DNA of 63,802 nt, the filler included, from Nemertoderma westbladi (taxonomy: Eukaryota; Animalia; Xenacoelomorpha): the NCBI GenBank assembly GCA_032718475.1. It is 3 parts of 3 records of this genome, joined end to end, with 100 filler letters (N's around TTAATTAATTAA, not from the genome) between each part and the next. Parts side by side here need not be neighbours in the genome. Positions count along the whole stretch, not along the records: positions 1 to 27,388 come from JAUCBJ010002817.1; 2 more parts are not named here. One strand, given 5' to 3'. This document shows, piece by piece, positions 4,822 to 63,802 of the stretch; position 1 is the stretch's first letter; each line of letters starts with the position of its first letter. Under the pieces are notes generated by a model. That model was not told the origin of the DNA and did no database searches. It worked only from the letters and a program-made list of their open reading frames with translations. A program made the position numbers and the translations under genes.

Positions 4822-5283
4822 TATCAATAAGCTATTGGATAATGAGAGTAATTACTTTAAAAGTAAGCATCATATTCATAGGTTACAAAACTGTTATGCT
4901 ACTGTATATCACATAGGTATAATAGTATAATAGTTACATAGTTGTGATATTGTAATAGTTACCAATCGTTGTTAATAATTGTGAAAAAATGTTTTAAGAA
5001 TACGTAAAAGAACTATAAAATTATGGGCGTAGGTCTCTTCTATATGTGATGAAAATATCACTACTTTCAAGTATAGAAAGTAATAGGGAAGATTTCCGCA
5101 TTCTTCCCCATTTCCAATATATATATTTGTAGCTATTATTAGGCAGTGTTTCATATATGTTATTGCTACTGTAGCTATTATTTTTAATGGTATAGCTAGT
5201 GATTTACGTACACCGGTAGCTAGTATTTTTAAAAGAAGATGAAGGAAAGAGAGGAAGAACTAGAAAGACAATATCAGAATGTA

Positions 5284-6238
5284 CACCATGACCCGTAATA
5301 TAGTGTCATTTTCTGATGACACGACCCCCCCCCCAAATTTTTCTACAAATTTAATTTAATTTAAAATGTACACTTGAAAATTGAAACACAACTAGTTCAA
5401 CTCACCGTGGTTGTTACCATGAAGCCGGAATTTTCGATTTCGAATTTAAATCTTATTTATAAATGTTTTAAAAAAGTGTCTTTTGCGAAATCGCACCCTC
5501 TGTTTCATTGCCATTCTTCACTTTAGTCGTATTTTTTTTCATATCAATAGAAAGCTTGCGTTGAAAGGATTCCAAATATGTAGCAATATCTGAATTTCGT
5601 TGAGAAACAACTGAGAAATAGGCATTCAAAGGTTTCAAGAATTATTGTTCACTGCAGGCCATTTATTTCTATTTATCTATATTATTTATATTTATCTATA
5701 TAATATCTATTTAATAAATACACAATATTCTGGAACAATTTGTTTATGTATGATTAGCTACGCAGTATAGATATTGTATAGGCATACCGCTGTTGCCTAC
5801 CAACTCATAAAATAAATAACACGTTCTAGAATTTTGTGTATTTATTAAATAGAATAAATGACCTGCAGCGTACAATAATTCTTGCAATCTTTGAACGCCT
5901 ATTTCTCAGCTGTTTCTCAATGAAATTCAGATATTGCTACATATTTGGAATCCTTTCAACGCAATCTTATTGATGTGAAAAAATTACGTCTAAAGTGAAG
6001 AATGGCAATGATACAGAGGGTGCGATTTCGCAAAAGACACTTTTTTAAAACGCTTATATATAAAATTTAAAGGCGAAATCGAAAATTCCGGCTTCATGGT
6101 AACAACCACGGTGAGTTGAACTAGTTGTGTTTCAAATTGCGAGCAATATGATAACGATTTGTAGAAAAATTTGTGGGGGGGGGGGGGGGGGGGTGGTCCG
6201 TGTCGTCAGACAATGACACTATATTACAGGTCATGGTG
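5284..6238. mobile_element. Foldback/MITE-type non-autonomous DNA transposon, ~450-bp inverted arms, TA target duplication
   Basis: ta|CACCATGACC...GGTCATGGTG|ta. The arms are complementary almost to the centre (e.g. gaaacacaactagttcaactcaccgtgg / ccacggtgagttgaactagttgtgtttc). No ORF. Confidence 0.9.
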
Positions 6239-6271
6239 TATGTGAGTCTGTAAAAAATCAAAAGGTACATT

Positions 6272-6660
6272 CATGACCTACTATATATGTATACGACCAT
6301 AAAAGCTGCATTCTACCTACTAAATTTAGTAGGCACACGTTTTTAAAATAATGTTTCATATATTGGAAGGATTTTATAATAAAAGTCTTCTAGAACATTT
6401 TTTTATGATTAGTTTAATAGTAGGCCCTAAATAATATAATTTTGAAATAACTTATTTTAATAGCTATTTTTTGGTAAATGGCAATTCAACATCGTTAGTG
6501 CGTATCTACACCATCTCCTGGAATATTGTGTCTTAATTCAGTGACTTGACCACAAATCTTATTCTACAAATCTTCCTTAATGAGATTGAATGAAATTTGA
6601 AATAGATATTGTTTTACCTCCCTCATCCATACTGGATGCTTCAGAATATTTATTTTCGCC
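6272..6660 (+). repeat. Left long terminal inverted repeat of P/Galileo-like element
   Basis: Starts CATGACCTA and is the reverse complement of 20262-20627 over ~370-390 bp. Confidence 0.9.
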
Positions 6661-6670
6661 TCTAATCCAT

Positions 6671-7257
6671 TGTGACGGGATCAAGGGATTCCGACCGGTT
6701 GTCAGACTACGCGTCACCGTGGTATTGAAATAAAAGAGTTTGTTGTTATCTCTTCGACACTTGGTAGTTAATATCGATAAAATGAATTGATAATATATGT
6801 AATAGCACAGTTGATAGGTCGACAATAGCAGTATACCGGTAGGTAGGATATGTAATATGTAATGACGGTGACGGTAAAAGATGTCACCGGTCTGCACTCA
6901 AACTAATGACTGGAATAACTGAACTGGTATGAATACATTGATAATATATCTAATCATCCCTACATTACCGTGGCCTTTGTCCAGTGGATGCTTTCCCCCG
7001 CTCCTATTGGCTGATAACCTACTACACGCCTCTCAGCTCTGTGGGAGTGCTTCCCCCCCTGTTCCGTTGGTTATTTTCCCTCTCGAGGTGGTTTGACCTC
7101 TAACCTCCCTTTGTGTGGCTTTTGGGGTGTGTGTTATCCCCGTTATTGGGTGTGATACGAGATTGGTTGTTATCGATCTCGTATCTCCAATATTGCTGAA
7201 AAAGGCGCCACTTCCCAACTTTATGGGGGTAATGAGGCGGAATTGAATCCGCTCACA
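6671..7257 (-). repeat. 3' LTR of BEL/Pao family A element
   Basis: TG...CA ends with short inverted termini (tgtgacggga / tccgctcaca). A polypurine tract (GGGGGGGAG on -) is directly adjacent at 7258-7266. No second LTR copy was found in the window. Confidence 0.7.
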
Positions 7258-7972
7258 CTCCCCCCCATGCTATCTTCCCGGTGAGAAGATAGCATCACCT
7301 ATGAGTGCGCTTCAATTCCGCTGGAACCCGATCTACTATCGGGTGTGGGGTGGAGTTCTTTTACTTGGAGTCGGCTTTCCAGGCCGCTCCCTCTGGGTAT
7401 GATATTACTACCCCCTCTTGGTGCAACCCCAACCTATGTTGCACCAAGACATCTGGCATCTCGGTTCGAGACAATTGTACTCCTCTCACACAATTTTAAA
7501 TCCCCACTCCACTCTAAACTGACTCTAACTTCTCTCTACTTTCACTCAAACTCCCCACTCCACTTTCGGACCTCTTTGTCCCTCACTCTGCCTCTTACTC
7601 CCCCCCCCCCCACATTTGAATCGCACCCGTACTCTCTCCACACGCCTCAACACCACCTCTCACTATCTCCCCTGCGTTCTATACTCAACCCTTACTCACA
7701 TTACCCCATTCGGTCCTGACGAGCCTCACCCCCCCCCCCCCTTCCGTGCCGTCGCACTTAAGAAGTGTCAAGTGTGTAGTGCCACGTCTAGTCTCCCGTC
7801 CTCCTGTTGTAGTCGATTGGTCCCCAGTCCCAGTAGCTAGTTGGAAAAGGTTACACGACTATACTACTTACTTTGATTATATTGGGTATTGATTATATGA
7901 TTACATTCTATTGATTACTACATACGTACATACTAATTGCACTTTTATTAAATTTGCACTTAGAAGTTCGTA

Positions 7973-10555
7973 TTACTTCGCATGTGGTGCCTCCCAGGCA
8001 TCCCCACATCTCCCCCTCCAAGTTCTAGTTCGCTCCTCCTGTCTTTGGAACCATCTCAGTTCCTTCCCTCTGTCGTTGTCCTGTCTCGGTCGCTTCCTGG
8101 TTGTCGCCGCTCCCTTGCTCTTGTCCTCCTTAAGGTTCCTCATCCTTGCCGTTACTTCCCTACTGATTCCCGTCGTCGATTCCTTGGGCGCTGGTGTTAT
8201 TAGCTCCCAGTATTGCTTCGCAGGTGGCCCCTCTGAATGCCCCTGCTGCTTCCCCCTAGTGGCGTCCCATAGGATCACGTTCATGGCCCGCGGCAAATGC
8301 TCCGCCAGGAAATCTCTGAACTCTCCCCGGTTCTCTGGCGCCCATCTGTCTAAATACCTCTGTGTATTCATCACTCCCGCATACGATGCCGCAGTTGATA
8401 CATCTTGATAAGTAAACGGAAGCCTCCGTTTGATGATTTCCAGGTGGGCCTCCTGGTTAATATTAAAGAAACCCCACCGGAATTCCTGGGCCTTCATCCG
8501 CCGCCGCGTCAAGACCCCGACATCGGCCCACTCCTCAAAGATCTTAAACTTCTCCTCGTCGTCCATCCAGTCGCACTGGCATCTGTAGTGCCCCCGGAAG
8601 TTGCACTTAGAACACTGGTTGTGCAACCGTGGACACGCCCCCATCCTATGACTCGACTCGCGGCAGTTGAGGCAGCTCATCCCCTTCTGGAATCGATACA
8701 AGCAGCTCCTTTCCTGGTGAGTAAGCCTCCCGCAGTAATCACAGCCGAGTACCAACGCGTCCCGCCCCAAGTCTTCCTTCGCCCCAAGCGATCTCCTAGG
8801 TCTATGGAGCCGCTGGTAAGCAAACTTCTGGACGTTAACGTCTCTGTCCATGTGTATGTCCTCGTCTCGCCTGAGCATCGTCTCTCCGAATACTACCCAT
8901 GGTGCCGTTCCTGGTTGCTCGCCCAACCTGATGGTGCTCCCCGTGAAATCCATCGCCAGGTCCTCATGCACCCAGGCCCGCTTGCCGGGTTTATCCCAGA
9001 AGGCCCTCGCCCCGCTGGCCGTCACAACTCTCCCGCCAACCCAGTCCGTGTCTGAGTGGCCGATTCTCCCGATGGGCGGCATCTCTCCGAACTCGTCGTC
9101 ATCCTCATCCTCCGCTGGGAGTGGCTCCAAACCCGGTATCCCGGTAGACCCACTGTGTCCCTTCCCACCTTGGCTTTCGCCCGTGACTTTCCATCCTTCC
9201 AGTTCCCCTGGCCTTCTCTTCGCGAAATCGCCCTCGGCGCCCACTGGCATGGGCATCGCCTGCAATCTCGATGTCGACTGTTTCGGCAATCCTTCCGCCC
9301 GAGCTCCCTGATGTCCATTGTAAATCGTCCAAGGCCTGGGCCTCGAACCCGTAGCCCTCTCCTCTAGCTTCCGCCTCTCTTTCGTCTGCCTCCCTCCTTT
9401 CTCGTCTAGCGATTTCTTCCAATCGCTTCTCCTCTTGTCTATGTGCCTCTAGATTCTCCCACCTCTGATATTTTGTATCCACCTCCCTGTCGACTAGATA
9501 TCGGCAGTTGTAGTATACCGACTCGCCCTTCAGCCCCGGGTGGTCTGCCAGACCGTCGAAGGCCACTTTGAAGGCTCTTCTGTAGTTCAGGGGTGATCCC
9601 AATAGCAGAAACGCCGTTGGCTCTCTTCCGATAACCACGGCCATGAATGGGTTTAGTAGACCTATCATTATCCAATCCTCCTGCAGGATATATCGCTTCT
9701 GATATATCTTTATCGCTCCTCTCCGGAATTGATACACCTCCTGTTTCCCCGGCCTCGCTCCCCACTTTAGCGAGTTCGCCAACCCTGCTCCGTACTCCTC
9801 CCTGAATTTACCCCAGTCCATTGGCTTGTGGCAGATGAGCCCCATTAGCTGGCCCATCGCCACCGCTCCACAATGTCCTGTGTTCTCTACTAGTCCCAAC
9901 CCGGGTGGCCCTGTCATAGCCATGTAGACCGTTTGCATGTCCAGGAGGTTGGGGTCTCCAGACCGATGATCCTCTCCGCATCGTCGCGGATCGCCGATCC
10001 CACCTTTATCGTCGACTTCTCTCTTACTACGTTCTGCACCGCCCTTGGCAACCGGCTTAACTTCGGCCCGTTCTTCTTCCCATACGTTCCCAGATCGAAC
10101 AGGAATATGTCCCCATTTGGCGCAGCCAAATGCAGAAGTATGGTTCTGGCTGACCCCGCCAACCTTCTCCTCGATCCCTCGTCGTCTTCCACAGTCACTT
10201 CGTCGCCTAGGACCATGTATCCTTCCCTTCTAATGGACTCTATGAAACTCTTCCAGTCCTTTCTCGGTGATTCCCTCGGATACTTCGGTATCCCGAACTT
10301 CGCCTCATCTCCATTCACCACGTAGTGGAAATGCTCGAGGATCGTGTTGTCTAGCGACGGCGTCCTGTAGGTCCCGACCAGCCGCCTCTCGTGCACCTCC
10401 CTGAAACGGTCCTGCAGCGCTCGCGCCTTGTGACCCTTCTCTAACCGCTTGTGGTATCCCCTCGTCTTCTCCTCCGGATGCCTCTCGGTGAAATCTACTA
10501 GTATCTCCTTTCCACCCATTTCCGCGCTTCTCTTTCTAACAAGTTTCTCCGCCAT
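7973..10555 (-). pseudogene. Extra ORF of BEL/Pao element: WRN/EXD-like DEDDy 3'-5' exonuclease fold, coiled coil and 3 CCHC zinc knuckles (two frameshifts)
   Basis: Joins ORFs 9914-10555, 9105-9938 and 7973-9289. TILLHLAAPNGDIFLFDL...LPRAVQNVVREKSTIKVGSAIRDDAERI...LLDMQTV...QKRYILQED parallels the WRN-type exonuclease pattern. The knuckles are CDYCGRLTHQERSC, CLNCRESSHRMGAC and CSKCNFRGHYRCQC. Confidence 0.65.
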
Positions 10556-11064
10556 TTCGAATGCTCCCGATCACTCACCTACAAGGTGGTGCCTTGCCAA
10601 GGCTCAATATAGGTGAGTGATGTAGTTAGGATGGTCTGTATGGTCCGATAATGGTGTATCTCTCTCAGAACGCTAGGTTTTGTGTTATATTTGCCTATTT
10701 TACCCCCTAAAAATACTAGATTTTCCTAAATTCCCTAAATCTGTCAGTTACTTTTATTATCTTCTAGAATATTTTTACCTACTGTTGCTATAATTTGTCG
10801 AATTTTGATTTTAACATTAATTTTAATTCCATAACTGTGCTATTAATACTTCTAATGGATTATTCATTTTAATAACCCCTATGGTTTGTATACAGGATGG
10901 ACTAGCTACTCCTTACTCATACTGTGCTAGTCTGCACCAGGTAACCTCCTGGCCCTGTATCAAACATTCTGACCTACTCTACAGGCTGTGCAGTACAGTA
11001 CTATGTCTCGTGCGGCCTACACAGTCTGTCCTGCTGTACCCACGTGCCCCCTCTCACTTCTCAC

Positions 11065-11510
11065 TACTAACCCTACTAACTCTCTAACTCTACTAACTCT
11101 TACTAACACTCTAACTAACTCCTACTAACTCTTACTAACTCTTACTAACACTCTAACTAAATCCTACTAACTCTCACTAACTCTTACTAACGGTACTACG
11201 TACCCTCTTACTCTCTAACTAACTCCTCTAACGGTACTACATACCCTCTTACTACTAACTAACTCCACTAATGGTACTACGTACCCTCTAACTACTAACT
11301 CTTCTAACGGTACTACGTACCCTCTTACTACTAACTAACTCCACTAACGGTACTACGTATCCTCTTACTACTAACTCTTCTAACGGTACTACGTACCCTC
11401 TTACTACTAACTCTTCTAACGGTACTACGTACCCTCTTACTACTAACTCCTCTAACGGTACAACGTTCCCTCTTACTACTCTTACTAAACTACTTAACAC
11501 TCTAACTTCT
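11065..11510. repeat. Tandem ~36-bp repeat with GGTAC-NNN-GTACC hairpin, plus CTAA-rich repeats, between pol and the extra ORF
   Basis: About 7-8 copies of ctaacggtactacgtaccctcttactactaactctt. Confidence 0.9.
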
Positions 11511-11674
11511 ATCTGCCTACTTACTTACTACTATGTACTATGTACTATTACTTTCCTTTTTCTTACTCTCTTTCTATTATTTTATTATTTTTATTATTTT
11601 TTTTTTATTTGTGTGGGAAGGGCGTCTCGCCCTCAATCCCACCCCCCTCAGTCCAACACTTGGACGACTAAACT

Positions 11675-14600
11675 CTATGGTGCCCCTTCTAGCAGGCAAC
11701 ATTTACCTACAGCCCTCCTGTAGGTCTTCCTGTCTTTCGCTCCTATCTTACTCCCTATCCGCACTACCACCGATCGGACTCTTCCGTCCTCGTCGGAGTA
11801 AGTGTCTACTACTCTTGCTAGCCTCCACTGATTGTTGATGATTGTGTCGTCCGTGACGATCACCAAATCACCTTTCTTTAACTCTCTAGTGGTATTTATC
11901 CACTTGCTCCTCCTATGTAGTGTGGGTAGGTATTCCTCGACCCACCTCCTCCAGTACTCTGCACTTATTGCCTTAGCAACTTTCCAACTCTGTCGGGAGT
12001 GTATGTCATCTGGGTCTACACCCCGCATGTCAATGGTCGCCGGCCTTTCCATCAGGAAATGATTGGGTGTCAGCACATCTAGTGATTCTGGGTCGTCATT
12101 TTCTGGGTATAGCGGTCTGCTATTGATGATACCCTCACACTTAGCTAGCACCGTCCTTAGTATATCTTCTGTCACCATGTGGGTGTTCATCAACTTCGTC
12201 ATCAGACGCTTGGAACTACCCACGAGTCTCTCGACGCATCCTAAAGTATGCGGAGCATACGCCGTCCTCCTTTCCCACTTTACCTGTCGTCTCCTCATGG
12301 CTGCCCTGACTTCCTCTCCTTCCAGGATGTCCAAGGCCTCCGCCAGCTCGTTCTCCGCCCCCACAAAGTTGGTTCCATTGTCAGAATAGATCACTGCGAT
12401 CGTCCCACCTTTGCGGTCTCTGAACCTCTCTAGGGCATTGATGAATGCCGATGCGGTTGCGTCTTGGGCGAGTTCTATTCCTAACGCCCTCGTGTTGTTA
12501 CATACGACGTTGATGCCATAGCGCTTCTCCGTGTGTCGCATCACCTTGATCTTTATCGGCCCGAACATATCTACGCCGCACTGCGTGAATGGCGGGTCAT
12601 GCTGTCTCACCCTACTGGCCGGTAATGGCGCCATCTCCTGTACGGCCCGCTCCTTTCTCGTCTGTCGGCAGGTCTGGCACTGCCCCACTACCGCCTTCAC
12701 CTTCTTTCTTAGCTGCGTGATCCAGAAGGTCCTCCGTATCTCCGTGAGGGTCTGGTTGGTGCCCCCATGCAATATCGACTTGTGGGAGTCCCAAATGATC
12801 TGGTGGACTATCGGCGATCTGTTTGGGATGATTATGGGTTTCGGTGGGATGATGAGGCTGTTGTTATTCAGCACTCTGGAGTTCATTACTAGAATCCCAT
12901 CATCATTGAGTTGTGGCGACAGCGTGATGAGCTCGCTGTTCCGACGAAGATGTTGTTGTTTGCCGATGCGTTCCACTTTGTCGCCGTAGTTCTTTCTCTG
13001 TTCACACCGTATCACGGCCTTGGCCGTTCCCTCCAGATCGATGTTTGGTTTCCTCTTGGAGTCCTTGCCAACTCCCTTGAGAAATTCCCCGAAGGCCCTC
13101 CAGTACGCTACCAACTTCTTGGTCTTGTACCAGCTTGAGCTGTAGCTGATTAGCTTATCTGTTGGGTTGTCGCATGGTTCTTCTAATTTTGGTTGCACCC
13201 CTTTGATTTCCCTCACCATCTGACTATATATCTCTTCACCTTCTGAGTCTTCTCCCTCTTCTTCTGGTGCTACTTCCTCTGAGCCCGGGTCCACCTTCTT
13301 CATTGGTGGCCAGGCCGACCTATCGTTCAGGAACTGTGGCCCGTGCTGCCACAGCACTTCCTTCTTTAAGAAAGTGTGGCATGCCACGACCCTCGATAAC
13401 AAGTCTGCTGGGTTCTCGTCTGTTGGGCAGTAGTACCACCTTTCCAAGTCTGTCGTCACCCTTATTTCATCCACCCTATTTGCTACGAATATAGGGTATC
13501 TCGTCTTCTCATTGTGCAGCCAACCAAGCACTACCATGGAGTCCGTCCAGTAATGTGTTCCCACTATGTTGGGAATAGTGTCCATCAAGTAGGCTGTGGC
13601 CCTTACTCCTAATCTTGAAGCTGTCAACTCGAGTTTGGGACCGATGCTGAATCTGGCGGCGTCGACTTTACTTTGCTGAATGCAAGTCTGGGCTTATAAG
13701 CCCCCTCTCGTTGTACTAGGTAGAGTGCCGCTCCGTATGTTTCCAATGATGCATCAGAGAACATGTGTAGATCCAGATCCGTCATGTCCCCATCCGGGAT
13801 CTACACGTGTGGCATGCTGTACGTCCCCATCTGTTCTAAACTCTCCATCCACTTACTCCACTGCTTGCTGATTTCTTCCGGGACCTCTGTATCCCATTCG
13901 TCCTTTAACTTATATACTTTCTTAAGTATCTGTTTCCCCGTGACTAACAGTGGGAATGCTAGGCCTAGGGGATTGTATATCCTTGCTATGTACGATACAT
14001 AGCCCCTCTTTGTGTGGATGTCCGCGCCCTCCTGGCTCAGTTGATACTTGAACTCGTCTGTCTCCCGGTTCCACACGATCCCCAGTGCCTTCTGCTGAGA
14101 CTCTACTCTCTTGTTCGCCACGTCCTGTCCTTGGCTGTTGTGGGGTTATCCATGGTCGACTCTGGCCGTCTGTCCTCTATGGCTTTCATAAACTCCTCTG
14201 AGCTGGATTGGAACTTGGTCAGGTTAAACCCGTATCCCTTCAGGATGTCGCGAACCTCGCGCCCTGTGTCCAGTAGTTCTTTAACTGTATTTCCAGACGC
14301 CATTCCGTCGTCTACATAGAAGCCGCGTCGAATCATATCGACTGCTTTGGCGCTATACTTCCCCTCTTTCCCCTCTACTGTATCTCTTACAGCCACAGTC
14401 GTTGTAAATGAGGACGACTTGGCCCCCACGTTCTGCACCACCATCTTGTACATCGGTATTATCGACAGTTCCTCGTCGCCGTTGTACCATAGGAAGCGCT
14501 GGCTGTCACTATCCTCCTCCGTCACACAGACTTGGTTGAACATGCCTTCAATATCGCAGGTGAAGGCATGTCTCCCATTTCTAAATCTCAGTAGGACCTC

Positions 14601-17600
14601 GATTCCCGAGTTATAGATATTTGGAGATATTTACCTTTCTTTGGATCTAGAGCCACGTGAAGTGGCAGGTAGTAGGTCCTGTCCGTGTTCGGTTCGTCAA
14701 CCGGAAACTCCACGGCCCATCCTTTCTCGACATACTTCTTTAACATCTTATGGATGTACTCATCCTTCTCGGGGCTCCGTTTCAGCGTTTGCTTCAGTTT
14801 ATGAAGCCTCGTGAGTACCATTCCCTTGTTCTCCGGTAGCGGTAATTTTGGTTGTTTCCACACCATGCCTATGGTGTACCGCCCCTCGTCGCATCTCATC
14901 GACTCCTTCACACTTTGTATCGCTTGTTTATCCTCTACCGAGGTTCCGACCCCGGTCTCCTTTAGTCCCTCAAAGTCCTGTCTGAGCAGTCTCCTGAGCT
15001 GCTCCCCGCTCCTTCATCTTCCATCTCCCTCATAGTTCCCGCGAACATGCACCCTGATGTCTCCGACATCCTAAACGGAATCTTGGTTTTAATTGGGCCG
15101 CTTAGCGCCCACCCGAATGGTGTTAAAATTGCCATCGGGTCACGCTGTCTGTCTTCGCCAAAGACCGTCTGCATTCTCTCGCGGGCCGTCGGGCAGTCCA
15201 TTCCCACTATGATGGATACCTTCCTAACGTCCACCTCTGGTATCGAGAAATTGATACTGTCCAGGAATCTGTATTGTTCGACTTCGATGTTGTTTGGCTG
15301 CCTGGCGTTGATGTTGATCGATTCTATTACCTGGATGGGGTCGATGGTCGCCCCATAATCGCATCCTGGTGCTATCGCTGCTATCTCGCACCATCCCGTC
15401 CTCATCTCCAGGACCTCATCTTTGCTGGAGATGGTTGTTACCGCCATCCTACTTGGCCTCGTCTTTAGTCCTATCTCTTTGGCCACCCAATTCTCCACCA
15501 ATGTGAAGGCTGCTCCACTGTCGACCAGCATCAGCGTGGTTACTGATCGACCGCCTTCTCTGATTACCCTCACTGGAACTACCCTGAGTAGTACCATTCC
15601 TCTTTTCTTCGCCCCTACGGTGCTTGTTGCCATTGTCTGCCCTTTGCCTTGACCGAACTTAATTGGTGTTTCTTTGCATTGATCAGCTCTGTGTCTGCCT
15701 GCCACACATCAATGACAGATTCCACTCTTCCTTGCATATTCTACCTGATCTTGTTTGGGCAACGCTTGCCAATATCTTCAGTTCATGGTCTGATGAAGTG
15801 CGTTCGAATGCAATTGGCATTTGTTGTTTGGATTATAGCCGTCCCTGTACAGTGCGCTGTGTATCGCACTTACGTTCGTACCTAGTTCCCTACTGTTCTT
15901 ATTGTTTGGGTTCGGCCTACTGGGCGTGTTTGTGTTGTTATTTTGCCCCTGTCCGCTCCATGGTATGGCCCTACCCCCGGCTACATGTGGACTAGCAGTC
16001 CCCTGCGTCGCCACATATGGCAGCGATTGTCTAAGCTTTGGCAATGCGTTTGCCATGTTGTGTTCTGGTTTCGGCCTGTTATATTCGGTCTTTGGCCCCT
16101 TCCCCAGACTATCCTCGCTATAGACTGGGTCCGTGATCAACTCGGCTTCATAGTTGATGAAGTTTGACATTTCTTCTAGGCCCGGTTCCGCACCCTTCTT
16201 CTCCCGGGTGGAGAAGGCGATCTTTGTCCATTTATTGCACAGCCAAATCGGCAGTGCCTATCGTGGTGATATTATTAGATGTGTTGAGTTCGTATGGCGT
16301 GTCTAGTGTCTTCAACATGATTAGCGCCTTCTCGACTTTGTTCGCAAACGTCTTTATACTAACGGGGTTATCCTGTAGGCCACCCCATGTTATACCCCTC
16401 AGGGTTTGCCGGATGATCTTGGCCGGGTGCCCGTATTCCCTGTCTAGTGCCCGCCATGCAGTCGTGAAGCCACCCTCGATGCCATGATACTACCTCACGA
16501 TGTCGTACACTGGGCCTCCTGCATATACCTGTAGATATTTTAGGCACTCTGCCTGCGTCAGGTTCTTAGTTAATATCTTGTTGCTGTACATGCCTAGGCC
16601 CCGGCCTACTTCCGTCTAATTTAAATGGCTCTACGGGTGGTAGCTCGATTCTGGTCTTGAGCGCATCGATTAGTGTAGCCATTCCCATCGCCTGTGCTTC
16701 CAATGGGTTCGAAGGATGCTGTACAGATTCTCCCATTGGGTGCGGTCCACCCGTCCGGCCTGTTGCCTTCCGTTGCGTCGGATATACCATTGGGGGGTAA
16801 CGGCCCCCTCCATATTTCCGTGTCGCAAGACCTGTTCTCATCCAGGGGGTTCGATGTTCTTATTTCTGTTTGAGTATATTGTTGATATTGTAATGGGGGA
16901 ATGTCACCCTGTCCCCCCCCCCCCCCCCCCCCACCGATGGTATGTTTGGTACTGGGGTTGATGTTAATATATTGGGGCCCATACACCTATACACCATAAC
17001 TCTCCCCTCCCCTGGATATATGTTATGTCCCTGCATGTTATAGTCATACTGTTCTGCTGGTACCGGTATAGGCCTATCCACTTCTGGCCTACCTACCGGT
17101 ATATACTCCGCGACTTCCGGGTTTAATCCCATTGTCCGTGCTACTCTATCGCCTACACTATCTCTCCCAGCATGGCCTATAGTATGTGCAGTAAGGCCTA
17201 CAGTATGTCCTGCAGTCTGTATGTGTCCCTCCGGACCGAAGTTTAACCTTCTCGAATAGTCTAAGAAGTCCTCCCCGCGACTACCGTACCCTCGATTGGC
17301 AGCTATATCCCGTCGGGAAGTTTCTCTTCGATCCCCTCTCATATTCTCGTCCTCGTACCGGTACACCCTGTACCCCTCTCTCGGCGTATAGTACATCTCG
17401 CCAGGTTGCGTCTCTCCGGGGCGATGGCAATCTCCCAGGGTTCGACCCCACTGGCTCTCCAACTCCATCTCTACTACCGACGGCTCGCTATCCGTCCTCG
17501 CTCTCCGGTCGCTCGTAACGACGCTTCTTCTATTCTCTTCTCTTCTTCTCTCTTCAGTGTAGCGTCCCCGTTCTTGAGATCTCTCGTCGACCTCCCGGTT

Positions 17601-19693
17601 AAACTCCACTGTTCTTCTCCCCTCTTCTGACTGGGCTCGACATCTTGTCGCTCGCCCGCTCACGACGCCAACCTCCCTCTCTAGCCGGTCGCACACCGCT
17701 GGGGATATTCCTAATCCCCCTATTACTCTCCGTCGTCGGGTGCTGCGGTTCACCTAACTCGCCCCGCGCATTGTCCGCCGACGCCTGTGGGACACTCTCT
17801 GCCCCCCCCCTCTTGCCGCTAATCTCTCGTTGTGGGGCGCCTGTCCTGTAGCACCCCCCCCCCCCCCCCACTCGCCACCTATCACTTCACTATCTCTCGC
17901 CTCGCCTCTACGCCCCTGTCTAGTCGACGCACTATCTCTACTGCGGCTGGGTCTATTCACCCCCACCTCTCCCTCTATCACTGCGTGGCCTGGCAGGCTC
18001 CCGTCGGGTCGACTCACCCCCGCTACTCCCTGCGTATTAACTACGTGGCCTTCCAGGCTCCCTTTGGGGTCTCTCACCCCCGCTACCCCCTGCGTACTGA
18101 TTATGTGGCCTTGCAGGCTCTCATTGGCCGGACCACCTACATCTGGCCGCGTTTATATTAATAGCACCATTATTAACATTATTGTCAAAATTATTTGGAT
18201 TATTTGAATTATTCTGTACCGAATTCGGATTATTATTTAAATTATTTTGTATATTTGGATTAGAATCGGGGTTATTTTGTTTGTTTGAATTAAAATTATT
18301 ATTTAGATTACTCTGTGTATTTAAATTTAAATTATTCGAATTACTTTGTATATTTGAATTATTTTCTATATTTGGGTTTAGATTATTATTTGAATTATTT
18401 GGATTATTATGTGCGTTTAAATTAGGGATACTCGGATTTAAATTATTATTATTGGGCAAAATATTATTTCCTGGAATAAAAGTTTGATTAGGGTTGTCTA
18501 CTACGGTACTATTAATATTAACGTCTTCTAACGTAATGTTATTACACCCCCCCCCGCCCGTACGGTTACACCAGTCTTGGGTCTGTCGTCCGGTCCCTGT
18601 AAGTGGGGTATTAACAAACGTTTCCATTACTTCTGGCTCCTCGTAAACACTACCACCCTCACTCTCAGATAATCCCAACTGCGCCAGTTCCAGTCGGTGC
18701 TTCTGTTTGGCTTGATATTCCATAAGCCCCCTTAGCCGGGCATGCATATCATCCCGCATATGCTTTCCCGCCCTCTCTCTTTCTCTATCCTCTCGCAAAC
18801 TCTGGTTCACCAACTCTGTTTCTCTCACCACCCGCTCTCTACGCTCGCTCTCTATGCTTGTTCATCTCTCTCGTCTCTCGCTCCTTACGCTCCTTCTCTA
18901 CTCTCGTTTCTCGCTCCTTACGTTCCTTCTCTACTCTCGTTTCTAGCTCCTTACGTTCCTCTGTCTCTCTCTCTTCTTGTTCTCTACAATTTCTCGCTAC
19001 CCTCTCAGCCCTATCTCTACACTCCCTCGCCAACTCCCTCTCTTTCTCCAACAGCGCAGTTCCATCATCCAACTGCCTCTCTAATTCTTTCTGGTCTAGC
19101 GCCACCATGTCTAATTGACACGCCAGATCTATCTCTAACACCCTTCTTGCTTTCGCGGAGGATGTAGCGGACTTATCGGTCGCAACGGACTCCCGTCGCC
19201 TCTCTGTCCTACTAACTTTCCCCCGCTTTCTGGGGTTCTCGCTAACCGACGAGACCAAATCCTCGGGGTTAACCTCGGGTTCGCCCTCGTACGGATCTGA
19301 CCAACCCACTAACTTAATTCCCCTAGCATCCACTAAATATGGCCCTACGTACACCACTTCAGGCTCCATAACCCCGGATCACCACAGTTCGAATAGTTCG
19401 GTGACAACCCCCCTCGCTCTCTCACTCGCCAGTTCTCCCTGCCCGAAATGGACTAGATATCTGAAATGTTTATTCGACTCACCTAGCCGCTGGCTCAACT
19501 TCCCCTGGTTTACCTTTGCCCCCTCTCTGGCCTCCTTGAGCTGTTTCTTCGTGGCGTTGTAGGTTCCGATGTCCTTGTCGCCGACATCTCCTCCTCCTCT
19601 CCTGGTTCGGCGTCGTACCGGCGGCCCCACCATCGCCGTTCCGGTGTGCCGTCCGTCGCCCTCGGCCAGTGGCTGGCCGGTGACTTCGGTCAT
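11675..19693 (-). mobile_element. BEL/Pao LTR retrotransposon family A gag-pol, frameshifted; 5' LTR missing
   Basis: Domains read in order: gag (coiled coil, Asn-rich tract, zinc knuckles), protease LVDSGA, RT (YYLPLH, DIEGMFNQV, FYVDD), RNase H (FSDAS, WTDS, NPADLLSR) and integrase (HHCC, GVDMFGP, SDNGTNF, ERL, INSRPL) ending at CCLLEGAP. It has several frameshifts and a small RT deletion near 14600. Confidence 0.93.
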
Positions 19694-19777
19694 CCAAACA
19701 ATAAAAGATCACTTTACCAATTGAGGGAAACCATATGGTAAGACAGTCAATAGTCACATGGTCAGACAATCTAATCA

Positions 19778-20261: not shown

Positions 20262-20627
20262 AAGCGAAAATAAGACGCACCCAGTATGGATGAGGGAGGT
20301 AAAACAATATCTACTTCAAATTTCATTCAATCTCATAAAGATTTGTAGAATAATTGGTGGCCAAGTCACTGAATTAAGACACAATATTCCAGGAGATGGT
20401 GTAGGTACGCACTAATGAAGTTGAACTGCCATTTACCAAAAAATAGCTATTAAAATAAGTTGTTTCAAAATTATAATATTTACTATTAAATGAATAATAA
20501 AAAAATGGTCTAGAAGACTTTTATTTTAAAATCCTTCAAATATATGAAAAATGATTTTAAAAACGTGTGCCTACTAAATTTTGTAGGTAGAATGCAGCTT
20601 TCATGGTCGTATATATAATAGGTCATG
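20262..20627 (-). repeat. Right long terminal inverted repeat of P/Galileo-like element
   Basis: Ends ...TAGGTCATG, is followed by GTACTAC, and is complementary to 6272-6660. Confidence 0.9.
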
Positions 20628-25749: not shown

Positions 25750-27210
25750 CACAGCTCCCCCAGAACCTGAAATAATAAAACTAATTCGGATGTCTGATGG
25801 CCTGCCCACTTCGTCTGTATTGGGTCTTGATATAGTTTCTTGTGGGTTGGGAGAGTCTGTGTAGGGAGTGGATGAAAGGGGGGCCGGAGGTTTAACGGCT
25901 GGCAGCCTTCTCCGACGCAATGGGATGGCCACTGTAATAGGTTCGTCCATCGCGAGGTGGGTTATCTAAAAAGAAAGACAGGCATCTGGCTGTTATCTTT
26001 GTTGACTTCTTCAAGGCCTTTGATTCAGTCCCTCGCTCACGTATGTTCAGCATACTTTCATTATATGGGATTCCTGATGAAATTATTGCAACAATCAGAT
26101 CAGTATACGATGGTTCGACAACGTTTGTGTCTACTGTTGATGGTGACACAGAACCATTTGAAGTGTTATGGGGCGTCCTCCAGGGAGACACACTTGCACC
26201 ATTCTTGTTCATAATTGTTGTTGACTATGTTCTACGCATGTCCTTAGATCATCATAATGATGATGGGGTGATGATAACTCCACCTACTGGCTCCAGAAGT
26301 CGAGGAAATCCTGCCAAGTACCTAACTGATCTAGACTTTGCTGATGACTTAGGAGTACTCTCAGAATCACTAGAGGGAGCCCAACGGCTCCTCAGCTTAT
26401 TAGAACATGCTGCTACTAGTGTTGGTCTTTCTATTAACTCCAGAAAGACCAAAATTTTGACAGTTAACTTTGAAAGTCCTCAGCAAGTCTCTGATCGGAT
26501 GAGCATAAGCTCAAAAGATGGTATGCTTGAGCATGTGGATGACTTCTGTTACCTGGGATCATGGATCCGGAAGTCAGGTGAGGACCTTCGAATACGTAAG
26601 GGAAAGGCATGGGCAGCCTTGAATAGGCTTTCCAGGATTTGGAAGTCACGGAGAATTAAATGGAAACTTAAGGTCCGATTATTTAGAGCAGCAGTAGTTC
26701 CAGTACTCCTCTATGGGAGTCCATGCTGGGCTCTAACTGCTCTGGACACCAAATCTCTGGATGGCACATTCACAAGAATGCTACGCCGGGTTCATTGTGT
26801 CAAGTACAATGCATACATCTCCAACCAGACACTATATAACATTGGAGGTGTCTCATTGGTTCCCCCAAGCTTGACACTAGAACAAAATCGCCTCCGCTTT
26901 GCAGGACATTCGCCGTGAGGACCAGTCAGTGCATAATCTTTTACTTTGGCAGCCTCATGGAGTGAATAAGAGACGCATCTTAAAGGACACTGTCCTTGAA
27001 GATGCGGATGATCTAGCAAATGTCATGGGTGATAGGGAGTTGTAGCGGTGTAATTTTGTCGAAAAGCTGGCACAGCATTCTTAAAAATGCAGCTGCAATG
27101 CAGCATGCCGATCCTAGTAGTAGTAGTAGTAGTAGAGGTGAGCCGGTTTGAGTCTGTCGATGGAGACTGTCTTTCGACTTCCGCCTACCTTGACCATGTA
27201 CGATGTACGA
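25750..27210 (-). mobile_element. Gypsy/Ty3 integrase C-terminal relic with PPT, split by an RTE insertion
   Basis: 27136-27210 encodes YMVKVGGSRKTVSIDRLKPAHL and continues in frame at ~25955 as AMDEPITVAIP. A purine tract GGGGGAG precedes TGT at ~25751. Confidence 0.65.
25960..27135 (+). mobile_element. 5'-truncated RTE-type LINE (RT C-half, 3' UTR, (TAG)7 tail, AGGTG TSD)
   Basis: RT motifs FVDFFKAFDSV, GVLQGDTLAPFLF, DLDFADD, FCYLGS and RFAGH. AGGTG occurs at 25955-25959 and 27136-27140. Confidence 0.92.
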
Positions 27211-27388: not shown

Positions 27389-27488
27389 NNNNNNNNNNNN
27401 NNNNNNNNNNNNNNNNNNNNNNNNNNNNNNNNTTAATTAATTAANNNNNNNNNNNNNNNNNNNNNNNNNNNNNNNNNNNNNNNNNNNN
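27389..27488. other. Assembly gap with artificial TTAATTAATTAA linker
   Basis: 44 N, a 12-mer giving stops in all six frames, then 44 N. Confidence 0.97.
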
Positions 27489-30965: not shown

Positions 30966-33477
30966 CTAATCCGGAGTGTCAATGTCAAGACCGCCTTCCA
31001 CCGTGTAGTACCCTGTCAGACACCGCTGAATGATGAATTGCTCCGCAACCTATTAGAAGAAATAGCAGCATATCTTAACGACAGACCTCTCATGCGCATT
31101 TCTTCGGAGCCGAAATCCTTAGAAGCACTGACACCTGCACATTTTTTACTGAAAAAGCCAGTAGTAATGTTGCCAGTGTCTAAACCTGTAAACCAGAGCA
31201 GGGTGATGAGTATTTACGCATCAAGTGGCAACTGATGCAGTTACTCTCGGAAAGATTTACCATTCACTTCGAGAGATAGGCCTATTACCAATTACCTTCC
31301 AACCATACAGTTGCGCACCAATGGTTTGCCGAGAAGAAAAATGTCAAAGTCAATGACATGATACTCCTGGATAGGGATTTGCCACGTAAGAAATGGCAAA
31401 CAGGTTGGGTCGGCAAAATCCACATTTCCGACGATGGTCTTGTGCAAGCAGTTGAGTCACAAAACCAAAGCAAAGGGAATCAAATTTGAGTCACAGACTC
31501 TTCATCGCCCTATTGGCCAGATTGGCCGGCTATGCTTATTAGAAATGGCACGGGAGGAGTCTGGAAACTATGGCAAACAGGAAGTGAGACCTGATGATTT
31601 GAACTACCTAATTACCGAATAAACTAATTGTAACACGATTGAGTTCTATGTAGGTAGGTTCTCGATCATGGGAACGGGTATTGGTTAATTCAAATAATTA
31701 GTTGTTGTAGGTATTAGTTGTAGTATTAGATTTATTAATAAATGTACATACGTTTTATTATATAAATAATTAAGTACGCTTTATTAACCAATTTCAATTT
31801 TAACTCTCTTAAGCGCTATTGTTAAAGTATAATTATTAATGTAATAATTTACAAATAGCATAGGCCTAACTATAATATAATCCTCTGATCGAATTGATAG
31901 TTATATGATTAATACTGGAATCCGCCCAGAAAAGACTGGCCTCGGGTTTTCCTTGCGCGCTAGCCACCATCTCCTACTTTCAACCACATATGTTAGTGGT
32001 TAGCGCGGCCAGGGGCTACTCGGGTTTCAGTCCGGTGGCTGAAGAGCCACGGGCGCTGTCTGAAATGAAATCTTAGGGTACCGTACATTAAATTATGTTC
32101 CCCAAAACAATTCAACTAATTTTTGATTTTATTAACCTTGGTCTTATGGTATCTTAAATATTGTACCATAAGAGATGTCCTTACAGCAACATAAAACTTG
32201 CTGATTTAACCTTGGTCTTGCTATGCATCAAGCAATGCATAGCAAGAGATGTCTTACGGGTACAACAATATAAGTATTGTTAGTTAGTACCCCCTTTATT
32301 TAACAAACTGATAAATTATTAATATCAGTTATTAAGGTCAAAATAAATCAAAATTTATGGGAACGGCAATCAATCTATTTTGATTGTCAACTTGGTTCCC
32401 AATGAAAATAATAGTGAAACAAATAATCCAAGATCACAGGAATGGATTATAAAATACCCATAACGCAAGTAATCACAAGATTACGGGAACGGCCAATCAT
32501 TTAGATGGTCTACAATAAAATTTTAAATTAAAATATCAAACCAACTGTCATTAGATTTAATTTTAAAGACTTAGTTATAGCGCAATAAGCCCAGATCTGA
32601 GTGAATGAGCAATACTCTAACTCTACGCTCGTTTACTAAACTGCCACAACTTAAAATTAAATTTAAATAATTTCAATCAAATCAATCAAAGGAACCCGTA
32701 AGGGTTCATTTATTTGTTTCGTTATTACATAATACACGCTCTCAGTATTATAAACCCATCACCAGTTTAGGTACAGTGCGTAATTGGGGTTTTATTGTTA
32801 TTTAGATTATATGGATCGGTGCTAGGTTTGTAGTTCCAATATTTGTTTATAGTATTGTAGTATTTATGAGAAACAGGAAACAGTAGCAAAGCTAGTATAG
32901 TTCCCTGTTGCCGTGGCGAGAATTTATAAATTTAAAGGCGTGGAAACGCAATTCAAGTTATTAATCAATCACATGGAGTGTACCAATTGATACACCTTTG
33001 TGGCACTTTAGTAAACACCAAATAACAGCAACTGATATCCCTGTGTTTGTTCTATGTATGTAGCACCGTATGATTGACAACATCCCGAACAATCTATCTA
33101 TGGGTGTTACAGTAGCAAATTCGAGATAACTTCCATACAATTATTTTTGGCTAACTCGGATCCAGTAAACCCTAAAAAATAGACTGCATGGCTTTGGGTT
33201 TTCCTTGCGCGCTAGCCACCTTCTCCTTCTTTCAACCACATCTGTTGGCAAGTACATGGGAGTGGAGAGGCGTTAGCGCGGCCAAGGGCAACTCGGATTT
33301 CTCGTGCGCTCAAGAGAGCTCCAGTTCGAATCGGGCTGAGGATTTCTGTGCAGCACCGTGTCAGCTGAACCCACGATATTTATTTAGCTACTCCGGTACT
33401 TATTATATCGATATGTGATGATAACAACTTATACTAGAAAGCCAGCAAGCTGGCTGGAAGGAGCCCGGGGGAAGAAT
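30966..33477 (+). mobile_element. BEL/Pao family B integrase C-terminal relic plus long hairpin-rich 3' region ending in a PPT-like tract
   Basis: LNDRPL...EALTPAHFLLK and RPIGRLCLLEMAREESGNYGKQEV match 44611-45240. GGGGGAAGAA occurs at ~33468-33477. The extent of the 3' region is inferred. Confidence 0.7.
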
Positions 33478-38400: not shown

Positions 38401-39022
38401 AAGTGAATCACATGTGAGCTTTATGTGCCCGAAGTTGTTGAGATATTTATGCGCCATAACTCAAGTAAGGGTCGGCCAATTCGGCCATAACTCTTGAGAA
38501 TCACATCAGATAGCCTGATATAGATTTCCCATTGCCAGTGGTATGGTGACCCATTAAAGCCACTATACACCTTTTAGTTATTAATTTTTGCTTGAATTAA
38601 ATTTCGTTTAATTAATGTTAATTTTCAAATGGAATAGGCCTACAATTTAAAAAAATATTAAACATACTTTTATTTTATTGAGTACCAACTGAGGTTGTTA
38701 ACTCCATTTCAGTCATTTTTCGAAAAAGTGAAAGGCCTGAATTTATACTTTCTTTTTGTTATTGTAACCGATATATGTGATAAATCTTTCTTTATTCTAT
38801 ATAACCTGCTTTTAATAAACTTAGTCTTTTTTATTTTATTAATATGATATTTATAAATATATTATGTACTCCCATCAAATTTTATCTACACATACATTAT
38901 TTTTTGTACATTATTTTAGATAATATATTTTAAGCTGCTGTGAATTTGTATGCTCTATATGACCTACCATAAGTGTACAAGGGTTTTCCATAATTATAAC
39001 TCACTCCACAGTTCGTTTCATT

Positions 39023-40126
39023 ATGTCTGATATCAATGAACACCGCTCCTTGGCTTACTTTGCTGGGGGCCCGTCTCGTATAGCCACCAAAGTTCTCGCG
39101 AAGGTGCAGTCTGAACTCCTGAGTAGGGACCACACTGGAATCAGCCCGTTGGAGATAAATCACAGATCGCCCGAGTACAACAAAATTAACGATGAAGTGG
39201 AAGCGAATCTTCGAGAACTCCTACACATTCCATCCAACTACAAGGTGATCTTTATGCAAGGTGGCGGTCACGGTCAGTTCGCTGCCATACCCTTAAATAT
39301 CCTCCCGACTGATGGAGAGGCGGATTACGTACTCACTGGTTCTTTCAGTCAAAGGGCATTTAAAGAGGGGAAGATGTATGGTAAGGTAAACTTGGCAGCT
39401 CAGACAGATCCATTTACCTCGATCCCTCCAGAGGAATCCTGGGAGATCAGTGATAAATCCTCGTATCTTCACTACTGTGCGAATGAGACTATCGAAGGGG
39501 TGGAATTCCCGTTCGTCCCACAACACCCCAGTGGTGTCATCGTCGCTGATGTGTCCTCCAACTTCCTATCCCAACCCATCGACGTATCTAAGTTTGGGAT
39601 CCTTTACGCCGGGGCCCAGAAAAACGTGGGAGCTGCGGGTTTAACCGTTGTTATAGTTCGGGAGGATTTAATAGGTAAACAGAAACCGTATTGTCCGTCG
39701 ATATTGAATTATAAGTTGTTCTCTGAATATAAGAGTGTGTATCTCACGCCGCCGACTTTCAATATTTATTTGGCTAATTTGGTCTTCCAATGGATTAAAG
39801 AGAAAGGCGGTTTGACCGCTATGCGGGATCTCAGTGACCGTAAGTCGGCATTGTTGTACGATGTTATCGATAGATCTGGTGGTTTTTATCGCTGTCCAGT
39901 GGATGTGACGTGTCGCAGTAGGATTAATGTTGTCTTCCGCGTGGCCGGTGGCGATTTGGAGGTTGGGAAACGTTTTGTGGTGGAAGCCATGCAGCACGGG
40001 TTACATGGGGTGGCTAATTTGTCGTTTATGTCTGCGCTTAGAGCATCTTTGTATAACTCGGTTACTGTCGAAGAAACTGAGAGGTTGGCTGAGTTCATGA
40101 AGGATTTTATGGAAAAGGAGCAGTGA
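39023..40126 (+). CDS. PSAT1: Phosphoserine aminotransferase-like protein (divergent), single coding exon
   Basis: Intact 367 aa with motifs HRS, FMQGGG.GQF, YCANETIEGVEF, ADVSSNFLS, GAQKN (PLP lysine), TPP and RASLYN. Confidence 0.92.
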   Translation: MSDINEHRSLAYFAGGPSRIATKVLAKVQSELLSRDHTGISPLEINHRSPEYNKINDEVEANLRELLHIPSNYKVIFMQGGGHGQFAAIPLNILPTDGEADYVLTGSFSQRAFKEGKMYGKVNLAAQTDPFTSIPPEESWEISDKSSYLHYCANETIEGVEFPFVPQHPSGVIVADVSSNFLSQPIDVSKFGILYAGAQKNVGAAGLTVVIVREDLIGKQKPYCPSILNYKLFSEYKSVYLTPPTFNIYLANLVFQWIKEKGGLTAMRDLSDRKSALLYDVIDRSGGFYRCPVDVTCRSRINVVFRVAGGDLEVGKRFVVEAMQHGLHGVANLSFMSALRASLYNSVTVEETERLAEFMKDFMEKEQ

Positions 40127-40649
40127 AGTCCTGTTTCTCTGTGTTAGTAAGGTGCGGGTGGTGTTGGGTCCTACCGATAGTGATAGTTAATTTGTAATCC
40201 GAGATATACACACTAGGGATGTTGTGAATGTCATATTTTTAAAATCCGCAGATGCGGATGCAGATGTCTGAAGTGACATCCGCACGGATGCGGATGCGGA
40301 TGTCTATTAAAACATATATATTCTTGCCTGGCCTCCTTTTTACATCAAGGTGTTATACCAGCATTGTAATATTATATTCTAATCTTATTTTAATAAACTA
40401 ACAAGAGTCTAAGGTTATAGAACAGTTCCATCTATGCCTATTCATGGCAAAGGCTGCCCAAATGCGTTGTAGGCCATGTGAGTGGTCGTTTGGTCCCCTG
40501 GCCTACGTCATGAAGTCTTGGGACATTATGTCCTGGCGTAATACAGTACAGTAGTTTATTTTGCATCTGGCCAAGTAGTAAGAAATAATTTTGATATTTT
40601 ATACTCGATAATTTTAAGATAAAATAAAAAAAATTGCATTGTAATATTG

Positions 40650-41825
40650 CGTAGAACATAGTCAACCACAATTATGAACAAGAATGGTACAAGTGTATCT
40701 CCATGGAGGACGCCCCATAACACTTCAAATGGTTCTGTGTCACCCTCAACAGTAGACACAAATGTTGTCAAACCATCGTACGCTGATCTGATTGCTGCAA
40801 TAATTTCATCAGGAATCCCATATAATGAAAGTATGCTGACCATACGTGAGCGAGAGACTGAATCAAAGGCCTTGAAGAAGTCAACAAAGATAACATCCAG
40901 ATGCCTGTCTTTCTTTTTTGATAACTCTTCAATTATCCTTCTGAGTGCCAAAATGGGCTCCATGGTCCCACGACCTTTACGAAGCCATTCTGATTTCCAC
41001 GGAGCAGGCTCTCAATGGGATCCCTGATGCGATTTAATAGAATTCTATTGTATAGCTTTGCAGCAATGGAGATCAATGAGATTCCCCGAAAAGAACCATA
41101 GAGTGTTAGGTTGCTCTTCTTGGGAACTGGCACCAGCTTATTTGTTTTCATTTCCTGTGGGATGCTTGTTGTTCGGTACATGTCTACTATGATAAGATAG
41201 ATGAGCTTTAAACACTCAGGTATTTTAAAGACCTCAGGGGGAATACCATCTACTCCACTAGCACGATTGGTCTTAATGCTCTTTGCAGCAGCCTTCACTT
41301 CTGCAAAGGAGATATCGCCAATGGGAATATCTGGGAGTACAGACTCAGACACTTTTACTTCTATAAAGTTATCAGGCAATACCCAGTCATTATTGAGGAG
41401 TTTTTCAAATTGGGCCTTTCAACCATTGAGGCGATTGGTTGGTGATTCAGCCTTAACCTTGGTGGTTGGTTGGCTTTTCCTCCCAGTAAGCAAGTTGATC
41501 GATTTCCATGCCTGGGATGATTGCCTACTGTCATCAGCATCATTGATGGCATCAACCTGTTGGTTTATTCGCTCCTGTAGATTAACAGAGTACTGCCTGT
41601 TCAGGGACCTAGATGCAGCCTTAACTGCTTTCTTGGCCGCTGTAGTCTGTTTGAGTCGGGACTCTTTCTGCGCCTTATAGGGGTCATTTCGGCACCTCTG
41701 AATTTTGTGGTCAGTCCAGGAGGCCCTTTTCCTGTTTCGAGGGTATACAGGAACTGTTTCTGCAGCTGCTAACTTAACTGTTTGTGTGAAGGCAGTATAG
41801 CCCTCGCAGTGATCTGCCGGTTCTC
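40650..41825 (-). mobile_element. Internal RTE LINE fragment (linker plus RT N-half), frameshifted
   Basis: ASGVDGIPPE, FRGISLISIAAKLYNRIL, NQNGF and FVDFFKAFDSV. It overlaps the 25960 copy in sequence. Confidence 0.9.
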
Positions 41826-56875: not shown

Positions 56876-56975
56876 NNNNNNNNNNNNNNNNNNNNNNNNN
56901 NNNNNNNNNNNNNNNNNNNTTAATTAATTAANNNNNNNNNNNNNNNNNNNNNNNNNNNNNNNNNNNNNNNNNNNN
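56876..56975. other. Assembly gap with TTAATTAATTAA linker
   Basis: Same layout as the first gap. Confidence 0.97.
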
Positions 56976-60640: not shown

Positions 60641-60789
60641 AGTAAAAGTAAAAAAAAGTAAATTTTCTTCGGCCGCTCGGCCAGAAAATGTTCTCACTAA
60701 ATGATGCATTTTCCACCAAATTAAATCAATTCGTAAATATATTTATAATATAGTTACGATTTATACAGTAGTCTATATAATTATATAGA

Positions 60790-63771: not shown

Positions 63772-63802
63772 GTTAGTTAGTTAGTTAGTTAAAAAAAATT
63801 AC

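Follow-up and report, generated by a model that had tools for sequence, protein, structure and literature searches.

A predicted exonuclease and zinc-knuckle gene in the env position of a decayed BEL/Pao retrotransposon of Nemertoderma westbladi

Functions have been assigned to only a small number of the accessory genes in animal LTR retrotransposons, and it is still a question how a family multiplies to many copies in the face of small-RNA silencing. In a 63,802-nucleotide stretch of DNA from Nemertoderma westbladi (referred to here as the window; assembly GCA_032718475.1), a long third reading frame (ORF3) lies between a BEL/Pao pol gene and a 3′ LTR, and the question it raises is what the frame encodes and what it might do for the element. 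Known BEL/Pao elements with env-like third genes share with this one the gag-pol order, the Pao RNase H, the polypurine tract (PPT), the LTR and the placement of the third gene after pol (PMC8742986; accessible parts of PMC3118150 and PMC13524379). In those elements the third gene encodes a fusogen, whereas here it encodes a predicted soluble nuclease-knuckle protein, and the present element is at least 13 kb long as against the 4.2–10 kb described for the group in the same sources. The features of the locus are as follows.

6286–6659, strand unassigned: foldback element arm flanking the insertion
6671–7257, minus strand: 3′ LTR of 587 bp (TGTGA...TCACA), single copy in the window
7258–7266, minus strand: PPT of 9 nt, directly after a hairpin at 7267–7295
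7258–7972, minus strand: 3′ untranslated region of 715 bp, with AATAAA at 7949, 24 nt past the ORF3 stop
7973–10555, minus strand: ORF3, ~860 codons in three frame pieces, with breaks near 9950 and within ~9380–9150
8291–8791, minus strand: predicted triple CCHC-knuckle domain, compact, with a helical cap and one additional conserved His (knuckles at 8743–8702, 8674–8633 and 8614–8573)
8800–9640, minus strand: charged low-complexity linker containing the second break, unconserved among relatives
9650–10260, minus strand: predicted DEDDy/EXD2-like 3′-5′ exonuclease domain, split by the first break (ExoI near 10200, ExoII near 9980, ExoIII YxxxE near 9690)
10556–11674, minus strand: pol–ORF3 spacer with a conserved hairpin and AATAAA cluster past the pol stop, 36–40 bp tandem repeats, an AT-rich stretch and a candidate acceptor
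11675–15708, minus strand: decayed BEL/Pao pol with protease, reverse transcriptase (RT), Pao RNase H (Peptidase_A17) and integrase with H2C2 and DUF5641, interrupted by numerous stops and frameshifts
15709–19640, minus strand: decayed gag region with coiled-coil pieces and one broken knuckle at 15717, its extent taken from position
20264–20617, strand unassigned: other arm of the foldback element

An earlier reading of the DNA, made from the sequence alone and referred to as the sequence-only reading, had assigned the carrier to BEL/Pao, and pol bears this out. Its domains run in the BEL/Pao order of protease, RT and RNase H followed by integrase, and Pfam searches recovered the Pao-type RNase H region (Peptidase_A17, E 2.8e-15) and DUF5641 after the integrase, with further E values of 1e-8 and 1.1e-23. 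The PPT and 3′ LTR that had been placed jointly at 7266–6671 are both present, with limits now refined to 7266–7258 and 7257–6671, respectively. A 9-nt PPT before a 587-bp TG...CA LTR agrees with the group's usual PPT of ~10 nt and 3′ LTR of 0.2–1.2 kb. Eight of the ten terminal bases of the LTR form an inverted repeat, and one contig assembled from public DNA runs starts exactly at the LTR end at 6671. There is no second LTR copy in the window, and a search for the 5′ LTR and PBS of the decayed copy found neither. Two candidates for a further LTR were rejected: 20260–19640 as a diverged 5′ LTR, given that 136 of 200 shuffles scored equally high, and the post-pol spacer as a true LTR, which lacks a 9-nt PPT followed by TG, has low depth in its distal bin and shows a weak LTR likeness matched by 5 of 200 shuffles.

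The element sits between the two foldback arms, and a second foldback element with long inverted arms (5282–6240) adjoins the first. An identical hexamer is found at 20225–20220, just inside one arm, and at 6670–6665, directly past the LTR; it resembles a target-site duplication, yet no 5′ LTR adjoins it. Two stable hairpins are present as well. One, at 11600–11660 (about −20 kcal/mol), lies past the pol stop, is kept in a second BEL pol copy and is followed by three AATAAA motifs; a G-rich tract, this hairpin and AATAAA come immediately after pol. The other, at 7267–7295 (about −18 kcal/mol), directly precedes the PPT. A ~70-bp tandem unit at 60786–61118 resembles 19696–19730 on the 5′ side of the element, from which many contigs continue into this unit, and it may be a leader repeat of the element family or a satellite.

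ORF3 opens with an ATG at 10555 in good context (gaaATGG) and closes with TAA at 7975–7973, a minus-strand span of 860 codons between the pol stop (TAG, 11677–11675) and the PPT, just as the sequence-only reading had described it. The three pieces occupy overlapping frames (10570–9914, 10229–9105 and 9448–7973), and a codon-bias scan trained on the element's own pol prefers exactly these frames, in order. Both of the frameshifts previously placed at ~9940 and ~9300–9350 are present, although their positions hold to different degrees: the first falls at ~9950, where a profile match changes frame between ~9962 and ~9947 and where other copies vary in length, while the second is confined by the codon-bias scan only to ~9380–9150 in the non-conserved linker, so that 9300–9350 is possible. 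A sequence motif resembling a splice acceptor (pyrimidines followed by TAG) ends at 10579, upstream of the ATG. An env identity was rejected, in keeping with the initial impression of the frame, since no piece contains a transmembrane segment (best 19-residue Kyte-Doolittle mean 1.31) and the N-terminus is basic and has no signal peptide by inspection.

What the N-terminal half encodes was addressed with a profile of its relatives, seeded with the N-terminal regions of four proteins picked by eye and iterated over 78 proteins, with the window excluded. The profile matches ORF3 piece 1 (E 5.7e-7, model positions 33–123) and piece 2 (E 0.008, model positions 131–224), in order; out of 1136 six-frame segments in the window these two rank first and second, ahead of a third-placed segment at E 2.3. 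When the domain is read through with X at the break, the match improves to E 2.7e-10. A profile of 26 long members, compared with PDB sequences, gave EXD2 (PDB 6K17) at E 4.9e-13, Egalitarian at 5.9e-5, the Trypanosoma brucei RNase D TbRND at 4.7e-5 (mainly via its fingers) and WRN at 0.044. An AlphaFold2 model of one relative, P0019, contains two confident domains and a disordered linker. Foldseek placed EXD2 first with this model, and VIA-align gave Z 15.9 (rmsd 3.1 over 201 residues) to the Nibbler EXO domain, tied with WRN and other DnaQ folds; a BFVD search returned only general DnaQ-fold matches. Other searches gave little or nothing for the domain: Pfam had no match to the window's exonuclease pieces, single-sequence PDB searches had none with both upstream pieces, Pfam DNA_pol_A_exo1 appeared in just 2 of 35 relatives, both below cut-off, and NCBIfam gave nothing relevant. 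As modelled in P0019, to which the window is joined by profile, the nuclease domain of the ORF3 family is a DEDDy 3′-5′ exonuclease fold with EXD2 as its nearest match; both the DEDDy/EXD-type fold and the DnaQ fold expected of it were thus recovered, the second by structure. The nearness to EXD2 is one of sequence and fold likeness. EXD2 itself is a conserved host gene whose product has an N-terminal membrane anchor and is not known to carry knuckles, and the nuclease half of ORF3 is likely to have come from captured host EXD2-like sequence.

The C-terminal half holds the three CX2CX4HX4C knuckles that had been read there, all in the last ORF3 piece. The window's knuckle region is predicted as one folded unit (mean pLDDT 81.6, pTM 0.73, core pLDDT >90), and relatives carry an extra near-invariant His and conserved Gly/Thr positions past the knuckles. 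Pfam gave only E 0.078 on the window knuckles. The knuckle profile, compared with PDB sequences, has TbRND as its best match (E 3.5e-5) and resembles the fingers of TbRND and Lin28, which is consistent with the RNA-binding type proposed for them at the outset. The knuckle-domain model has no Foldseek match at E 0.001 and a best Z of 3.0 among 48,161 chains, and such a missing match is not proof of a new fold.

TbRND (PDB 7C42) has the same general layout as ORF3, a DEDDy domain followed by a CCHC zinc-finger array, and its nuclease domain is a fold match at Z 14.6. It differs in that it is a cellular enzyme that trims guide RNA and in that its linker is short and its four fingers extended, according to the accessible part of PMC7797062, where the fingers are described as needed for RNA binding and as raising cleavage by the DEDD domain. 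In ORF3, by contrast, three knuckles form a predicted compact domain with a helical cap, separated from the nuclease by a linker of 200–400 residues. The two architectures are probably convergent.

The distribution of the family was examined with a full phmmer scan using 333 residues of the knuckle half, which returned 74 representatives at E ≤0.001. The N-terminal nuclease domain is present in 28 of these: 28 of the 31 that have at least 450 residues and none of the 43 shorter ones. Identity among relatives is 15–24%, and the architecture is kept across 28 clusters at <50% identity. The 30 relatives or kin that were looked up derive from ENA, JGI, NCBI and Logan contigs of 2–73 kb with no informative names, and several form clusters of 4–6 near-identical members, as expected of repeats. 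Genomic-context searches for the relatives were empty in viral contigs, metagenome contigs and prokaryote genomes; word-indexed homologue searches found none for piece C, and with profile A2 found only the first member of the query. The ORF3 relatives, as judged from their sequences, are a widespread unannotated family comprising intact (9 of 28) and degenerate members.

All four acidic residues of the active site are kept in those nine, and the set is incomplete in the other 19, five of which are partial domains. With the full set missing from 19 of the 28, much of the family can dispense with catalysis. A tree was built from the window and 24 relatives (four short rows were dropped); its branches are long. 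Three well-supported groups of degenerate members are interspersed there with intact ones, and the window clusters, with support, with the intact P0019 and P0023. Unusual forms are also seen. For example, in P0001 the nuclease domain is cut short and the knuckle domain is present twice, and P0063 has a nuclease remnant behind a long N-terminal extension.

To which of these groups does the element's own nuclease belong? In the window copy, the first ExoI position is Gly, and the ExoI Glu, the ExoII Asp and the ExoIII Tyr-x-x-x-Glu are kept. In ExoIII, for which the reading comes from the window alone, Glu replaces Asp, just as in P0019 and P0023. The altered ExoI (VLGDE) that the sequence-only reading had noted is therefore real, but it is private to a dead copy: sister contigs aligned to 9880–10260 show the canonical ExoI in about 99% of summed depth (runs X1 and X3) and in the single contig of run X5, with ExoI kept in 35 contigs of other copies in X1, 30 in X3 and 1 in X5. 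The window copy thus lacks one of four acidic residues that its element family retains, and the suggestion of a pseudo-nuclease is unsupported, and was rejected, for that family, the other three positions being intact even in the window. The 381 bp of 9880–10260 were also examined by codon position. Among the variable places listed (40 of 60), 26 of the 39 in 9960–10229 are at third positions (p 2e-5). When these are divided by a share of 0.88, a split chosen post hoc, the 26 at which the variation lies among other copies or runs comprise 21 third, 5 first and 0 second positions (p 9e-7), and the 13 at which the window copy is the outlier comprise 7 second, 5 third and 1 first (p 0.45). The pattern is evidence of purifying selection on the nuclease region in the family, with decay of the window copy since its insertion. 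Because sister copies keep ExoI and vary mostly at third codon positions (21 of 26), the family's nuclease is quite probably catalytically active.

Whether ORF3 belongs to pol in other copies was assessed with contigs of public DNA runs of one organism (three runs, two samples), in which summed contig depth is not copy number. Relative to the pol bins, summed depth is 0.59–0.79 in ORF3, 0.05–0.12 in the flanks and ~0.1 in the AT-rich spacer bin, and the LTR bin (6867–7333) has 1.4–3.5 times pol depth. By this measure, ORF3 is repeated on the scale of pol. In addition, T makes up 0.10–0.14 of third positions in ORF3 and its own pol versus 0.21–0.36 in two host genes, a second BEL element and a LINE, all in the window. 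ORF3 lies on the pol strand, and a PPT and LTR terminus are found downstream of ORF3 only. Given depth on the scale of pol and the common avoidance of T at third positions, it is likely that ORF3 travels with pol in other copies.

The explanation that best accounts for these observations, held tentatively and at slightly less than an even chance, is that ORF3 is an accessory gene of a repeated BEL/Pao family whose knuckles bind single-stranded RNA and whose nuclease trims the 3′ ends of host small-RNA guides as a counter-defence. The protein would be made from its own subgenomic or separate RNA, as the good ATG context, the candidate acceptor ending at 10579 and the AATAAA at 7949 suggest; by analogy with TbRND, the knuckles would hold single-stranded RNA and feed it to the active site, where the nuclease domain would trim the 3′ end. 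Given that sister copies conserve the nuclease part, ORF3 is likely to help the element to spread, perhaps by blunting the host's small-RNA defence. Conservation of the nuclease-knuckle fusion in 28 of 31 long relatives supports this explanation, and the folds nearest to the nuclease domain include Nibbler and EXD1, which are piRNA-pathway proteins. For EXD1, this role is noted in PMC5408684. The 15–24% identity of the relatives would suit a conflict gene. Host small RNA is favored over the element's own nucleic acid as target, at a little under even odds, on account of how fast the relatives diverge and how close the domain stands to small-RNA trimmers. Several findings count against the explanation: no contig bridges pol to ORF3 in other copies among 32 listed of >81,000 pieces, spacer depth is about a tenth that of pol, neither a 5′ LTR nor a PBS was found, AATAAA follows both pol and ORF3 with none in the LTR, and the DEDDy ORF3s of bdelloid rotifers have no clear link to copy number (PMC5408684). 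The loss of the acidic set in 19 of 28 relatives is no less compatible with a role in binding or as an adaptor.

A broader version of the counter-defence explanation is doubtful. Under it, ORF3 and its relatives would be a widespread, unannotated family of counter-defence proteins encoded by retrotransposons, in which an EXD2-derived exonuclease, joined to a triple-knuckle domain of undescribed fold, captures host piRNA or siRNA guides and degrades or sequesters them, active forms and dead decoys turning up repeatedly in different animal lineages; if true, it would be an element-encoded mirror image of the host trimmers Nibbler, EXD1 and Mut-7.

An alternative that is possible, though unlikely, is that ORF3 serves as an RNA-binding adaptor for the element's genomic RNA, acting in nuclear export, germline localization or particle loading in the manner of Egalitarian or the CERV protein of Cer1, with the nuclease fold mainly a binding surface. 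One of the best matches is to the exonuclease-fold domain of Egalitarian (E 5.9e-5), for which complexes on localization signals, including I-factor RNA, have been solved. CERV, the product of a spliced mRNA, serves in the export of Cer1 genomic RNA according to the accessible part of PMC10309623. In a tree with long branches, catalytic residues are lost in at least three well-supported clades that keep both domains, and such loss, if repeated, is better explained by an adaptor than by small-RNA trimming. Against an adaptor stands the retention of all four acidic positions in the window's family and in 9 of 28 relatives.

It is less probable that ORF3 is a replication accessory, trimming the element's RNA, primer or cDNA at the 3′ end or proofreading on behalf of RT in the particle. 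DEDDy enzymes act on RNA and single-stranded DNA ends, the knuckles resemble nucleocapsid fingers, and such a role has been proposed for the bdelloid ORF3s (PMC5408684; accessible part of PMC6431247). However, a core replication role fits repeated catalytic loss poorly, gag and pol suffice for the replication of most BEL/Pao elements (PMC8742986), and no fusion to pol is indicated, a weak search for a longer fused form of P0045 (1431–4085 residues) having found none.

There is only a slim chance that ORF3, the PPT and the LTR make up a separate, possibly non-autonomous repeated unit that adjoins a BEL gag-pol here. The missing 5′ LTR, the fall of depth in the pol–ORF3 spacer and the G-rich tract, hairpin and AATAAA directly past pol would suit such a unit. 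So would a second related BEL pol end at 43287–44050 (+), with 79% protein identity over 38 residues, which has the same post-pol hairpin but shares the spacer only to about 10925 and shows no ORF3 remnant; other insertions, however, interrupt this copy ahead of any ORF3. Furthermore, no upstream LTR copy, TIR or poly(A) delimits ORF3, its base composition is that of its own pol, and pol lies together with ORF3 between the two foldback arms, the hexamer being common to 20225 and 6670. That ORF3 is no more than a neutral passenger, a host gene picked up by the element, is scarcely credible, for although its nuclease half probably stems from captured host EXD2-like sequence, both the third-position bias among copies and an architecture maintained across 28 clusters at <50% identity speak against it.

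How much of this is new can be judged against elements of bdelloid rotifers. Juno and Vesta are Ty3/Gypsy-type elements. They and the Terminons have been described to carry DEDDy-type 3′-5′ exonuclease ORF3s with intact catalytic residues, which in Juno and Vesta take the env position and have no transmembrane segment (PMC5408684; echoed in the accessible parts of PMC6338049 and PMC6431247). The earlier statement that no example had been described is thus incorrect for DEDDy ORF3s in general, although those carriers are rotifer-specific lineages and not BEL/Pao, and no fusion to three CCHC knuckles is described there (PMC5408684). The motifs, compared by description, differ too, with DEED in bdelloids (PMC5408684) and D-E-D-E with an ExoIII Tyr here. 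Within BEL/Pao, the only third genes mentioned in the group profile (PMC8742986, ICTV) and the accessible parts of two surveys (PMC3118150 and PMC13524379) are env-like, and exonuclease as a word is absent from the main text of the surveys. No BEL/Pao exonuclease ORF was found in the literature covered, which excludes Repbase, subscription journals and supplements, and a Repbase-level description may exist. What is new, in these terms, is the BEL/Pao carrier, the fusion of the nuclease to a compact triple-knuckle domain without a clear PDB match, and the broad unannotated family. DEDDy ORF3s are extended from bdelloid elements to BEL/Pao, evidence of purifying selection is added that was unreported for the DEDDy ORFs of the bdelloid study, and the family of at least 28 clusters offers naturally intact members suited to direct expression and assay.

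The rest of the window contains other repeats and genes. For instance, a different decayed BEL/Pao element lies at ~44680–50500 (−), with an integrase region 29% identical and its own gag knuckles at 47584 and 47482, and further BEL gag-knuckle or integrase fragments and LINE RT fragments occur at 842–1204 (−), 31026–31474 (+), 25941–26918 (+) and 40556–41418. The N-filled gaps at 27389–27488 and 56876–56975, both outside the element, have a 12-nt palindromic spacer in mid-gap. Finally, long unbroken host-like frames are found at 38963–40126 (+) and 62213–63784 (+), whose motifs resemble those of phosphoserine aminotransferase and of the membrane portion of HMG-CoA reductase, respectively.
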